Assembly (NCBI GenBank): GCA_963770835.1 | Contig: CAVYRH010000011.1 | Span: 1-64,000 of the forward strand | DNA: 64,000 nucleotides | Direction: 5' to 3' | Source of the DNA: an uncultured Pseudomonadota bacterium | GTDB taxonomy: Bacteria; Oederibacteriota; Muellerivitia; Muellerivitales; Muellerivitaceae | In this document: piece by piece, positions 1 to 3,925 of the stretch | Layout of the letters: every line of letters starts with the position of its first letter | Numbering within the stretch: the stretch's first letter is position 1 | The notes under the pieces: generated by a model | Databases searched by the model: none | The model's input: only the letters and a program-made list of their open reading frames with translations | Told to the model about the DNA's origin: nothing | Position numbers and translations under genes: made by a program

Positions 1-10
1 GTCCACGACG
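1..10. repeat. 5' arm of intron-targeted palindrome (5' exon, contains IBS1 CACGACG of intron 1)
   Basis: GTCCACGACG is the reverse complement of CGTCGTGGAC at 1958-1967; nt 4-10 pair with EBS1 at 224-230. Confidence 0.8.
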
Positions 11-1951
11 GTGCGTCCAGAAAAGGCAGGTGTGTTCAGCAAGAGATAGTCTTGCATGGGTAATAGCCAAAGCCCATTAGCTAGGATGGCAGGCAAGCGG
101 GAAACCAAATGCCTGAAGCCCATCAACAAAGCCATCGAAAGGATGGTGAGCGAGTCGTCGGGCCGTAACGAAAGTAAATGCACAGGTGGCCCCGAAAACA
201 CTTGCCTCGGAGGCTGAGTCCGCCGTCGTGGGACGAAAGCATCATGGGACAGCGCGGAGAAATGGCTGAAGCGCTGGAACACTCCGACGGGGTGATAGCA
301 ACGGCACGAAGACAAGGACACGCCAAGCAACTGGAGAAACCCTCCTTGCCCCAGGCAGAAATGCTTGGAGAAAGGTAGGCCGTATAACCGTGACGCGGGA
401 AAACGGTCGAAGGTGAGAGGGTTTAGGATGGGTTCATGGTAGCGATGAAGCGGGGTAATGCCCGTGGAGCGAAGGAACCCTGCTGTTGTTAAGTCCCTCG
501 ACAAAACGGAAGGCAGTGACGGTATGAAAAAGACGTCAATTAACCTGCAAGACCTGAGACGAGAGATATACGTCAAAGCGAAGGCTGAAAAGAACTGGAG
601 TTTCTGGGGACTGTACACCCATGTTTGCAAGATGGAAACGCTTCAACAGGCTTACCGAATGGCTAAGGTAAATAACGGAGCCCCTGGAATAGATGGGGTG
701 ACGTTTGATGCCATTGAGGAGGCCGGAGTGGAGTCGTTTCTGGAAAGCATCCGGGGTGAATTAGTTCAAGGCACGTATAAGCCCGTTCGAAACCGGAAGA
801 AGGAAATACCCAAGGGAAATGGGAAGGTAAGAGTCCTTGGGATACCCAACATTCGGGATAGAGTAGTCCAGGGAGCACTGAAGTTTATTCTGGAACCGAT
901 TTTTGAGGCCGATTTTCAAGAAGGGTCCTATGGGTATCGACCCAAGCGGACCGCTCATGCGGCTGTGAACAGGGTAGCATCGGCAATCGTCTGTAGAAAA
1001 ACCCGAGTCATTGATGTAGACCTCAAGGCATATTTCGACACGGTAAGGCACGACCTTCTGATGAAGAAAGTTGCCCGAAGGGTTGAGGATGAAACGGTGT
1101 TGAGATTGTTGAGGATGATCCTGAAGGCCAGCGGCAAAAGAGGAGTCCCGCAGGGAGGGGTTATTTCCCCTCTTCTGGCTAATCTCTACCTCAACGAGGT
1201 GGATAAGATGCTGGAAAAGGCAAAAGAAGTGACTCGGCAAGGGAAGAACAACTATATCGAATATGCGAGGTTCGCTGACGATATGGTGATCCTTGTTAAT
1301 GGATATCCGCAATGGGAATGGTTGGCAAAGGCTGCCTACCGAAGGTTACTTGAAGAATTGACCAAGCTCGACTTGCAAATCAACACGGACAAGACGCGGA
1401 TAGCAGACTTAACGAAAGGTGAAAGTTTCGGGTTTCTGGGGTTTGACTTTCGACAGGTGAAAACCCGTCGAGGGAAATGGGGGGTGAAGTTCACGCCGAA
1501 AATGAAGGCGCGAGCAACACTTCTGGGTAAGCTCAAGGAAACATTTGGAAGCTTCCAATCTCAGCCGGTGCAGAGGGTGATTGAGATTATCAATCCCAAA
1601 CTGCGTGGGTGGGTGAATTACTTTCGGATAGGGAATTCTAGGCGCTGTTTTAACTACGTGGAAAGATGGGTCGAGAATAAAATCAGACGGCATATGATGC
1701 GTGCGAAGAAGCTCGACGGTTTTGGGCGGGATAGGTGGAGTAGGGAGTGGATATATAAGTATCTGGGGTTGTACAGAAGCTACCAAATACGATATTACCA
1801 AGAACCGAAAGCGCTACCCGTCTGATAGGTCACATAAACTTTGACAGGAAAGCAACAGGTGAGCGTAGTGCGGGAAATCCGCACGCTACGTTCGAGGAGG
1901 CGGGGACTGGAAACGGAGCCAGAAGGCCACCGCACCAGTCCTCGACCCTAC
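11..1951 (+). mobile_element. Group II intron (IIB-like) encoding an RT/maturase
   Basis: 5' GTGCG; DI basal stem TCCAG/CTGGA; EBS1 loop CGTCGTG (224-230) complementary to exon 4-10; DV GAGCGTAGTGCGGGAAATCCGCACGCTACGTTC (1861-1893) with AGC triad; DVI ending CTCGACCCTAC. Confidence 0.95.
524..1825 (+). CDS. ltrA: Group II intron reverse transcriptase/maturase, no endonuclease domain
   Basis: RT motifs GAPGIDG, RDRVVQ, GVPQGG, RFADD, FLGF and X domain GWVNYF; ATG 524 lies in DIV whereas ATG 458 lies in DIII. Confidence 0.95.
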   Translation: MKKTSINLQDLRREIYVKAKAEKNWSFWGLYTHVCKMETLQQAYRMAKVNNGAPGIDGVTFDAIEEAGVESFLESIRGELVQGTYKPVRNRKKEIPKGNGKVRVLGIPNIRDRVVQGALKFILEPIFEADFQEGSYGYRPKRTAHAAVNRVASAIVCRKTRVIDVDLKAYFDTVRHDLLMKKVARRVEDETVLRLLRMILKASGKRGVPQGGVISPLLANLYLNEVDKMLEKAKEVTRQGKNNYIEYARFADDMVILVNGYPQWEWLAKAAYRRLLEELTKLDLQINTDKTRIADLTKGESFGFLGFDFRQVKTRRGKWGVKFTPKMKARATLLGKLKETFGSFQSQPVQRVIEIINPKLRGWVNYFRIGNSRRCFNYVERWVENKIRRHMMRAKKLDGFGRDRWSREWIYKYLGLYRSYQIRYYQEPKALPV

Positions 1952-1968
1952 GGGACCCGTCGTGGACA
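1952..1968. repeat. 17-nt inter-intron exon: loop and 3' arm of the target palindrome, contains IBS1 GTGGACA of intron 2
   Basis: Joining 1-10 to 1952-1968 gives the hairpin GTCCACGACGG-GGAC-CCGTCGTGGAC. Confidence 0.8.
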
Positions 1969-2768
1969 TCGTGCCAGAGGAGGGTTTGCAGAGCCAGCAG
2001 GTGAGGGAGTAGGCCGATGAGGGTCAACCCAAGTCCTGACCAGGTAATCACCAGAGAGCCTGGAAGTCAGCCCCCGGCGTAGGATCGAGAGGTCCTGCCC
2101 GAAACGGGGTCATAAACCTCATTTAGTGAGGGAACAATCCAGCAGTCCGCAACATCAAGTGAATCCTGCCGCTTCGTGAATGGGACACCGAAAGGTGCAA
2201 GGGGATGCCGAGCCGCGTGTCTACTGGCGAAGGCCACGATCCCGCTGAAGAATCTGGTAGCAAGCGGGGCAAGTCCTCCGGAGTATGGGGAACGGAATGT
2301 TGGAAAGGCTATGCAAGCAAGCTGGGAGATCCTACCCGCCAAAAGACTTGCCGCTATAAGGCTAAAACCGAAAAGAGGCAAGGGTGGGAGGAAGTCGGAG
2401 GGGGTCACAGTACCGATGAAGGGGTGGACAACAAAACCACCCTGAGGGAAGGACCCCTGCTTCAACCATGTGTCTCAAAGAAGGTAGGCGCTGGAGCATG
2501 CCCCAAAAGGGCCAACAACTCTGTAGTACCAAAGCGCGAGGCCTTTGACAACAGGCACTATGCCGAGCGGCCAAGGGGGAAGTCGAACCTGTAAAGCCGC
2601 CGGAGGAGAGGTTGTCGGAAAGCCGTATGATCGAAAAGGTCACGTACGGTTTGACGAGGGGGCGCTGGAAACGAAGTGATGAGGGAACCTCGTTGGGGCA
2701 CGGAACCGGAAACGGGGAAACAGATCAAGGAACCCTCTGCACACCATCGCGCCAGTGCTCTACTCTGC
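1969..2768 (+). mobile_element. ORF-less group II intron with non-canonical termini
   Basis: DI stems CCAG/CTGG and TTGCAGAGCC/GGCTATGCAA; EBS1 TGTCTAC (2218-2224); J2/3 GGA; DIII GGGGTCACAGTACCGATGAAG...GAGGGAAGGACCCC; DV AAGCCGTATGATCGAAAAGGTCACGTACGGTTT (2620-2652); extended DVI ending CTCTACTCTGC. Confidence 0.85.
2498..2575 (+). pseudogene. Relic N-terminus of an intron-encoded protein in DIV of intron 2
   Basis: Translates MPQKGQQLCSTKARGL*QQALCRAAK, resembling the KVRxLQxxLYRAAK N-terminus of group II IEPs; stop at 2546. Confidence 0.55.
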
Positions 2769-2817
2769 AACAAAAAAAGTGCTGAATAGGCTGTCCCGTG
2801 TTTGAGGGAGAATTTCT

Positions 2818-3858
2818 GTGAATAAAACTTTCTTGATGTTCTTCCTGCTTACCCAATCCATTTCCTTCGCGAAATCCCTCCCTATCATCAATCTTGGGGA
2901 CGCCAATCAGGCGCCAAATTATTCATCTAAATTGGTTTGTTCCAATCTTGCTCATGGTGAATTCACGGTTACGGACACTAACGAATATGGGGTGCTAATT
3001 GAGGGCGGCATAGGCATGTACTCCACGCCAAGTCCGACACTGGTGATCCGGCAGGACGGGAAAGTCAGGGAACTGGATCTTCAAAAAATGTTCAAAGGCG
3101 ACATCATCCGGCTAGTTATGGACGAGGAGGGGTTCTTATTTCTGGAAAACCAAGTGAAATTCGGCTGCCATTACGAGATCGCCTGTATTTCCCCAACAGA
3201 CAAAGTGTTATGGATAAAGCCCTTCACCTATGGCGGTGATTGTTTGGGTGGTGATACCTGGGGTATTTCTGTAGAGCTTTCCCATTTTGATAAGGGGATT
3301 TATGTCGATTATTACGAAAGGCTTCCGACCGGCGAATTCGCAATGAGAATCAAAAATAATTCGGCGAAATTATTTTACTTGAAGGACAAACTCAATAATG
3401 AATGGGAAATAGTCCTGCCAGAAAACAATAAAGGGTATGGTGAAAACATGAATTATTATTCCATCCCTAATACAATGAAAGAGGATTGTAAGATCGCGTA
3501 TAAAAACGGGAATAATACCACAATCGGGTGGGTTCAGATAAAAGAGGCGTATAACCCGAAAGTATCAGGCCAGCCCACCCGGTTGGTCGATCTTTACAAG
3601 GACAAATCGGGGAAATTGTACGCCCTGTATTTTTATGATTCCCCTTTAGGGAACGCTTACTCGGATTTCAGGTATGTTGTGACCTATTCAAAAGACGGTT
3701 TACCTACTGGAAAATACGAGATTAAACCAGGTGAAAAATTCCGTATGTTCCAAACCTATCGGTTTGGAGAGCACCCTTACAATGAAAAGGGCGAGATATA
3801 CTTCAGCCGGTCGCGGGACCGCCAACACCAAGATTTGTTAAAGCTCACCCTCCAGTAA
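2818..3858 (+). CDS. Hypothetical secreted protein, AT-rich
   Basis: 346-aa ORF, signal-peptide-like N-terminus, GGGAG RBS, visibly lower GC than its neighbours. Confidence 0.7.
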   Translation: MNKTFLMFFLLTQSISFAKSLPIINLGDANQAPNYSSKLVCSNLAHGEFTVTDTNEYGVLIEGGIGMYSTPSPTLVIRQDGKVRELDLQKMFKGDIIRLVMDEEGFLFLENQVKFGCHYEIACISPTDKVLWIKPFTYGGDCLGGDTWGISVELSHFDKGIYVDYYERLPTGEFAMRIKNNSAKLFYLKDKLNNEWEIVLPENNKGYGENMNYYSIPNTMKEDCKIAYKNGNNTTIGWVQIKEAYNPKVSGQPTRLVDLYKDKSGKLYALYFYDSPLGNAYSDFRYVVTYSKDGLPTGKYEIKPGEKFRMFQTYRFGEHPYNEKGEIYFSRSRDRQHQDLLKLTLQ

Positions 3859-3895
3859 TAAAAAGTTCCGTCTTTAAAAGCGGAGGTTTGAAATA

Positions 3896-3925
3896 GTCCA
3901 CGATGAGGGAACCCGCATTGGACAA
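3896..3925. repeat. Degenerate second copy of the intron target palindrome, followed by a T tract (possible terminator)
   Basis: GTCCACGATGAGGGAACCCGCATTGGACAA aligns with the reconstituted GTCCACGACGGGGACCCGTCGTGGACAA. Confidence 0.65.

Follow-up and report, generated by a model that had tools for sequence, protein, structure and literature searches.

What brings two different group II introns into one and the same short palindrome, only 17 nt apart? The question is raised by the left end of a 64,000-nt stretch of DNA from an uncultured bacterium, of a soil lineage, in the GTDB class Muellerivitia (positions 1 to 64,000 of contig CAVYRH010000011.1, assembly GCA_963770835.1; hereafter the window), which is the start of contig C11 of the 4.58-Mb source genome, G000, other G-codes denoting other genomes. 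A preliminary description made from the window alone had reported the double insertion, and it holds, for the sequence joined across both introns, A and B, is also found intact many times in the genome. We are fairly confident that A and B are independent introns whose guides, the exon-binding sites 1 (EBS1), are directed at different arms of a palindrome that separates gene cassettes and is likely the crossover site of an integron-like system.

All features of the locus lie on the forward strand. The contig start cuts the left arm of the 30-bp palindrome, leaving site positions 3-12 at 1..10, which hold IBS1 (intron-binding site 1) of intron A; the same flank precedes 10 of the 12 A copies. 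Intron A (11..1951) is inserted after site position 12, 1 nt before the loop, and splits the palindrome. The remaining positions 13-29, with the central GA and the right arm, form the 17-nt spacer at 1952..1968, which ends in the IBS1 of intron B (1969..2768), an intron that follows site position 29 and leaves the site intact. As first described, each EBS1 reads a different arm: CGUCGUG in the d3 loop of intron A (224..230) forms 7 of 7 Watson-Crick pairs with the left (5') arm, and UGUCUAC of intron B (2218..2224) forms six Watson-Crick pairs and one G-U pair with the end of the right (3') arm.

Intron A is a complete intron with ends GTGCG...CCCTAC, encoding a reverse transcriptase (RT)/maturase of 433 aa with an FADD motif (524..1825; TIGR04416, 378 bits against a cut-off of 300), in which a Pfam scan gives RVT_1 and GIIM only and no endonuclease domain was found (En-minus). 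Its domains V and VI (DV and DVI) lie at 1860..1951. Intron B is an intron of 800 nt without an open reading frame (ORF), UCGUG...UGC, in which only the degenerate first and last codons of the lost ORF are left at 2498..2600, some 1.2 kb having been deleted; its first 610 nt are 91% identical to an intact ORF-bearing intron of G043. Its DV and its long DVI (about 110 nt) lie at 2620..2768, where Rfam RF00029 matches at 2618-2768. The ends of B are unusual in having U first and G penultimate, and these two bases covary across the B family (7 T/G, 5 G/A and no other pairing, n=12), while the first base of the 3' exon is A in 11 of 12 members; the boundaries of B were set by comparison of copies together with this covariation. 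The AGC triad earlier claimed for DV of both introns is borne out by folds, each with a 5-nt loop (GAAAU in A, GAAAA in B), and Rfam RF02003, a domain I motif, matches at 37-173 in A and 2025-2157 in B. By the DV triad, the bulged-A DVI and the EBS1-IBS1 pairing, as seen in Rfam matches and folds, A and B classify as group II introns, and their RNAs as IIE/IIF type by the 5-nt DV loop and, in B, the long DVI; such a loop is given for IIE/IIF introns in the part of PMC3753933 available to us.

The target itself is a dispersed repeat and a shared intron target, as had been proposed. A matrix search, which replaced an early fuzzy-regex census that under-counted, finds 90 intact palindromes in the genome and none in the reversed-genome control, and ten further sites are split by intron A, giving about 100 altogether, so that chance can be excluded and the doubt whether the palindrome has any copies elsewhere falls away. 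The half-site pattern is present in 28 of 32 genomes of the FCPU426 class, while a stricter pattern turned up in none of 15 genomes that belong to the phylum's other classes; among 54 exact GTDB matches of the site, 31 are titled FCPU426, 6 are unlabelled and 17 carry other submitter labels. Across 295 distinct site contexts from the source genome and its relatives, the site has the symmetry 14-GA-14, with the central G kept in 288 and the central A in 282, and one arm is more conserved than the other.

The sites are arranged as same-orientation arrays. In 52 of 53 short segments between sites, the cassettes, the longest ORF lies on the site top strand, and the GC content of these segments is 46% versus 54% for the genome; among the things they carry are toxin-antitoxin pairs, GNATs, secreted proteins and a Cas1 gene. 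One 861-bp segment is identical at four loci, with no plasmid match. Sites directly follow stop codons, and they stand at either end of cassettes that different genera share with 100% identity. Among the 295 contexts, pairs of sites share the downstream flank only in 31 cases, the upstream flank only in 37 and both in 2 (the pairs are not independent, and two involve the end of an insertion sequence, IS). In identical pairs, right-arm variants go with the downstream cassette and left-arm variants with the upstream one; since each arm variant thus travels with its own cassette, exchange is confined to site positions 12-16. The 30-bp palindrome separates shuffled gene cassettes, and their exchange maps to the site centre. 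It is likely the crossover site of an integron-like gene-cassette system. Co-oriented, shuffled cassettes are found as in integrons and in clusters of attC sites lacking integron integrases (CALINs); attC and IntI are not. Compared with no attC model applied, the site lacks the core and inverse-core layout of attC.

In the window, the cassette behind intron B carries a gene for 346 aa (2818..3858) without Pfam or NCBIfam match and without a second copy among the sequences compared, and it is closed by a degenerate, unoccupied palindrome, the last site of the array, which had been noticed at 3896-3925 and is placed by the matrix search at 3894..3925. Scans for promoters and terminators reached chance level only, and the exact site was not found in viral contigs. 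A CRISPR-like array in which Cas1-Cas2 duplicates whole repeats was considered and rejected, given that arm variants travel with the cassette and that Cas1 is cargo, in 7 of 32 genomes. The Cas1 cassette gene is followed by a small ORF (G000:C15:16146-17186, C3:47239 and C16:36044; also in G014, G004, G043 and G044), and its protein is 100% identical in three genera. A module containing ArdC and addiction-like gene pairs adjoins arrays at G000:C17:5915-12918, at C3:404-412 kb and in G015, and the arrays may ride on an integrative element.

Each intron lineage enters the site at one fixed position: A after 12, a third lineage, D, after 20, and the B family after 29. Intron A has 12 full-length matches in G000, 10 of them behind the left arm, which amount to 8-9 distinct site insertions, one locus being assembled twice and the C4 end perhaps coinciding with the window start. 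Of the 20 B-family copies in G000, 16 are at position 29, namely 12 of the 14 without an ORF and 4 of the 6 that bear one; in G043, where copies were found by RT search and not by the site, each of the 10 B copies whose junction is visible lies at a site. Intron A occupies the same base in G020 and G021, and D is found twice in G004, with a matching EBS1 and a DV loop, GAAAA, read from sequence. Double occupancy by A and B is seen at 3 distinct loci; the one assembled twice lies at G000:C3:1-1721 and C24:20576-22296, with 1720 of 1721 nt identical. Identical intron copies stand at distinct loci with precise ends. On contigs from two short-read runs, one of them possibly the source sample, intron A is covered at a depth of about 24-35 and the unique flanks at 3-6, so intron A is multi-copy.

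The three lineages are not closely related. RTs of A, the B family and D are 35-44% identical and fall in separate clades. How the intron-encoded proteins classify, a question posed at the outset, is answered for A: the A protein is 49% identical to that of B.th.I3, groups with it (SH-aLRT 100) and has the FADD motif, which places intron A in RT group g2 (former class F) on a quick tree with one g2 reference and no g4, basal-F, D or E reference; the row Bfam_G021, a different, nested RT, was left out of its reading. Relatives of A at 64% and 78% identity have other EBS1s and other targets, and EBS1 shifts together with the target in a Caballeronia relative of A, the G044 relative of A, the off-site B pair and the G020 B variant. 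The two off-site ORF-bearing B copies have a different EBS1 that matches their own target. Sister introns thus carry other EBS1s and use other targets, from which it follows that each lineage acquired its targeting on its own, and the comparison of guides and sites indicates that A, B and D are a case of convergent, sequence-guided targeting of one site.

Several observations on the families may be added. Two B-family introns with another EBS1 (G000:C2:234144 and C19:427462) occupy a motif seen behind island integrase genes and tRNA genes as well, and one of the two introns adjoins tRNA-Leu. The closest plasmid relative of intron A (L190, NZ_CP049319.1) appears inserted in the DV region of another group II intron. 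A second ORF-less B-family intron, independently derived, is L411 (G020:C9:252.5-253.3 kb, 783 nt), 81% identical to B and at the same site position. The B-family intron L141 of G021 is about 93-98% identical to the ORF-less B in its 3' part and of another subtype in its 5' part, a mosaic that suggests domain swapping within the family, and it contains a second, nested group II intron. A 1.5-kb IS110-family element (e.g. G000:C11:94464-95984) targets one position at the start of the B-family ORF, splitting 3 of 3 ORF-bearing B copies that are 92% identical and at least 3 ORF-less copies; the corresponding target in the window, 2519-2520, is empty, while it is filled in other B copies. Right-arm variants of the palindrome (positions 20-23) recur as a small set of alleles, 78 of 295 sites having A at position 22, whereas the mirror position of the left arm is nearly fixed, and two B-family introns with a changed last base of EBS1 (L411 and L235) occupy such variant sites.

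What the introns recognise goes beyond IBS1. IBS1 with the next base occurs 304 times (A) and 394 times (B) genome-wide, which is too frequent, so further determinants exist. All site insertions in G000 are on the cassette strand (A 10/10, B 16/16), even though, of 84 sites, 57 present a perfect B IBS1 on the top strand and 68 on the bottom one. A rule admitting the top strand alone was rejected all the same, as B-family junctions outside G000 are 18 top and 4 bottom (n=22, many of the loci having been fetched via the site pattern). The asymmetric core, the direction of the fork or a need for transcription could each underlie the bias; GC skew was too noisy to relate array orientation to replication.

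We propose that each intron ribonucleoprotein would reverse-splice into the site and that introns lacking an endonuclease would use primers derived from the replication fork; protein-assisted reverse splicing with such primers is established group II biology according to the available part of PMC4424553. As EBS1 alone is too short, the protein or EBS2 would have to read additional bases. Having no ORF, B would rely for its mobility on an ORF-bearing relative acting in trans, an intact candidate being G000:C11:107425-109405. By splitting the site, A and D would freeze the junction, and B, by leaving it intact, would be carried along at the front of the downstream cassette. That several parasites converged on the site may be explained by its roughly 100 copies, which are safe, conserved and intergenic. 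The cassettes themselves would be moved by a shortened serine recombinase, made of the catalytic and recombinase domains without a zinc ribbon, with strand exchange at the central GA.

This candidate comes from the genes beside the sites. Among 955 proteins near sites, a 275-aa serine recombinase is the only recombinase family that recurs directly beside them; it has the catalytic and recombinase domains and lacks the zinc ribbon that its relatives of 510 aa possess. Matches extending into the C-terminal part of this protein number 17, of which 8 are short, 7 are long and 2 have no downstream DNA. In six of the short copies the distance from stop codon to site is 7-103 nt, in another the neighbouring site is interrupted by intron A, and the last is without a site; a site thus adjoins 7 of 8 short copies and 0 of 7 full-length relatives. 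In serine integrases, as the consulted part of PMC3783163 describes, recombinase and zinc-ribbon domains span a 25-bp half-site and a coiled coil imposes direction; with these parts missing, by analogy an enzyme without zinc ribbon and coiled coil would be expected to act on short identical sites. The layout expected of a serine-recombinase site, symmetric arms around a 2-bp asymmetric core, fits both the geometry and the crossover window. The short recombinase was not found in viral contigs. We lean slightly towards it as the cassette enzyme with exchange at the central GA.

Other candidates for the enzyme were rejected. The best match to the IntI model TIGR02249 reaches 44.6 bits against a cut-off of 265, and nothing exceeds the cut-off for XerD. 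Multi-copy tyrosine integrases of 360-370 aa stand beside tRNA genes or tRNA remnants, untied to arrays. The Cas1 cassette has matches in only 7 of 32 genomes and an IS110 protein (358 aa) in 6 of 32. This IS110/IS1111-type element, with sub-terminal inverted repeats, inserts in 4 of 5 copies at the outer edge of either palindrome arm (G000:C3:45299, C3:81892, C3:103117 and C8:165043).

A different enzyme for the same arrays was considered. The introns would home as described, and the palindrome would be an 11-6-11 site of a tyrosine recombinase, like that of dif modules, served by the class-wide Xer-like gene or by an unseen enzyme. The geometry fits 28 bp, the unequal conservation of the arms suits it, and the single Xer-like gene is distributed as the site is, being present in 23 of 24 genomes of the family and 1 of 1 of the sister family, against 0 of 15 elsewhere. 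The Xer-like gene has, however, its own unrelated palindrome just upstream, for which reason dif/pdif modules were also rejected; position 17, within the would-be 6-bp overlap, varies in 44 of the 295 sites, whereas the central G and A are nearly always kept; and no XerD or IntI passes its cut-off. We regard this explanation as unlikely. The gene in question, a single-copy tyrosine recombinase at G000:C11:156015-157117 conserved across the class, has a conserved loxP-like palindrome just upstream, of which a second copy lies at C12:15230, and the two are likely a single-recombinase dif system.

It is similarly improbable that the palindrome serves a protein as operator, or is a conserved repeat of another kind, and has no recombinase of its own, homologous recombination between repeats shuffling the cassettes and the introns exploiting an abundant conserved sequence. 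Sites do lie tens of bases upstream of start codons, compensatory changes are almost absent, and, except for the Xer-like one, no recombinase is present in all site-bearing genomes. Such a repeat would nevertheless leave unexplained both the sites right after stop codons and at the two ends of cassettes shared without a difference between genera, and the linkage of the short recombinase, but not of its full-length relatives, to the site.

The preliminary description had seen the palindrome as a landing pad resembling repetitive extragenic palindromic (REP) elements, and one may imagine that its structure is recognised, as class C introns do with terminators or attC. An intact site is predicted to fold to a hairpin with 12 bp and -14.9 kcal/mol, the insertion point of B is immediately 3' of this hairpin, and the top-strand bias would suit a single-stranded target. 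Against this, the IBS1 of A, B and D each lie inside the stem, so that the hairpin competes with EBS1 pairing; the 12 B-occupied sites and the 78 other intact sites have hairpins of like energy (-9.3 vs -8.6 kcal/mol, p=0.49), and one site occupied by B has only -0.6 kcal/mol. Hairpin strength is not a determinant of B occupancy, and a landing pad of hairpin type is not supported. Nor is the REP-like label, for no site occurs in the 13 kb and 12 kb of sequence around the two RAYT-like genes, and the sites are direct repeats that bound shuffled cassettes; REP/RAYT was discarded on the same ground as the source of an enzyme. Membership in class C (IIC-attC), with its truncated EBS1 and stem-loop dependence, was likewise rejected, the EBS1s here being of 6-7 bp and unlinked to hairpin energy. 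Recognition as a hairpin is thus very unlikely. That the hairpin is a domain of a third, outer intron, a possibility raised at the outset, or that the repeats are an assembly artefact can be dismissed almost entirely, for although the window starts at a contig end and one A+B locus was assembled twice (C3 start, C24 end), no such intron is found, nine other A matches and all B copies have unrelated ordinary flanks, the same junctions recur in other genomes and metagenomes, and read depth confirms multiple copies.

Returning to independent introns guided to a cassette junction, several results weigh against our interpretation. EBS2 could not be assigned from sequence in these introns. Two of the 12 A matches are off-site with identical flanks (one event), as are 2 of the 14 ORF-less B copies, and an A-like intron of G024 has the same EBS1 yet is off-site. 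Co-occupancy of A and B is not clearly above chance (Fisher p=0.051, with counts uncorrected for the duplicated locus). The RTs of the B family and D reach at best 34-41% identity to g1-g3 references and were not placed in a named group on the quick tree, and short-read contigs show no spliced joint at the intron boundaries, while an RNA run yielded just short fragments of relatives. As regards the cassette system, one identical-cassette pair differs at position 11, contrary to the crossover map, and the short recombinase (at least 70% identity) is present in only 7 of 32 genomes and was not found in several site-rich ones, e.g. G002, G023, G041 and G018.

Regarding known systems, introns that hunt cassette sites (IIC-attC and one IIB case, in the available parts of PMC4424553 and PMC7923331) and IS elements that hunt pdif sites (PMC10132070, as far as its accessible text goes) have been described. 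According to the part of PMC4424553 at hand, group IIC-attC introns, S.ma.I2 and its relatives, are likewise En-minus and specialised on the recombination site of cassette arrays; unlike them, the introns here are of IIE/IIF type with a full 6-7 nt EBS1 against the site sequence and no sign of hairpin dependence, stand mostly in cassette orientation, and belong to three lineages at three positions of a site that is not attC. UHB.I2 and H.ha.F1/F2 in integrons and CALINs (PMC7923331) come closer, being IIB-type introns directly after the cassette site, in cassette orientation and with non-standard ends; the portion available reports one full copy and two fragments at true attC arrays and no demonstrated EBS1 adaptation, whereas here there are tens of copies in several genomes with site-matching EBS1s. 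The g2 introns B.th.I3 and Mx.xa.I1, as covered by the consulted part of PMC3552965, have the FADD motif in common with the RT of intron A, whose EBS1, unlike theirs, is retargeted to the palindrome.

Mobile elements of other kinds show the same habit. The IS1202-family "pdif site hunters" are specialised on a multi-copy recombination site flanking gene modules; they are transposases in the accessible text of PMC10132070, whereas in the present case one site, belonging to a different system, is used by retroelements and by an IS110/IS1111-type element. Integrons, CALINs and the dif modules of Acinetobacter are alike in having one- or two-gene modules of one orientation, shuffled and exchanged between genera; the present arrays differ from integrons and dif modules in a short symmetric 14-GA-14 site without attC boxes, in having no IntI or XerC/D over the cut-off, and in a candidate enzyme that is a truncated large serine recombinase. 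IS1111-attC elements, which are transposases, are also mobile elements specialised on a multi-copy recombination site.

A full-text literature search, which left most subscription papers outside, returned no account of this site, of cassette arrays with a serine recombinase or of a recombination site shared by several intron lineages, and a search of the PMC4028801 supplement gave no match. The accessible part of a review (PMC4424553) lists three target habits of bacterial group II introns, namely homing sites, terminators and attC, the last two for class C only.

What emerges is that EBS1 has repeatedly been adapted, in introns outside class C, to a cassette junction whose system is neither integron nor dif module, and the success of the ORF-less B, with 14 near-identical copies, is rare for such a bacterial intron. 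The locus thus offers a natural experiment in guide retargeting and in the partition of a 30-bp target among parasites. With confidence divided about evenly, we further suggest that FCPU426 has a second, independently invented cassette system, worked at the symmetric 14-GA-14 site by a large serine recombinase that has lost the zinc-ribbon/coiled-coil module for directionality. The site would be of sufficient age and abundance to have given rise to parasites of its own, each using a different base: at least three lineages of group II introns, and an IS110/IS1111-type element. The right-arm variants would be escape alleles of the host that some EBS1s have re-matched. The recombinase is possibly non-directional, is testable in E. 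coli, and might serve cassette assembly. For the bacteria themselves, the introns mark the site as functionally constrained, which supports a gene-capture system, and this cassette system of the host may prove categorically new.

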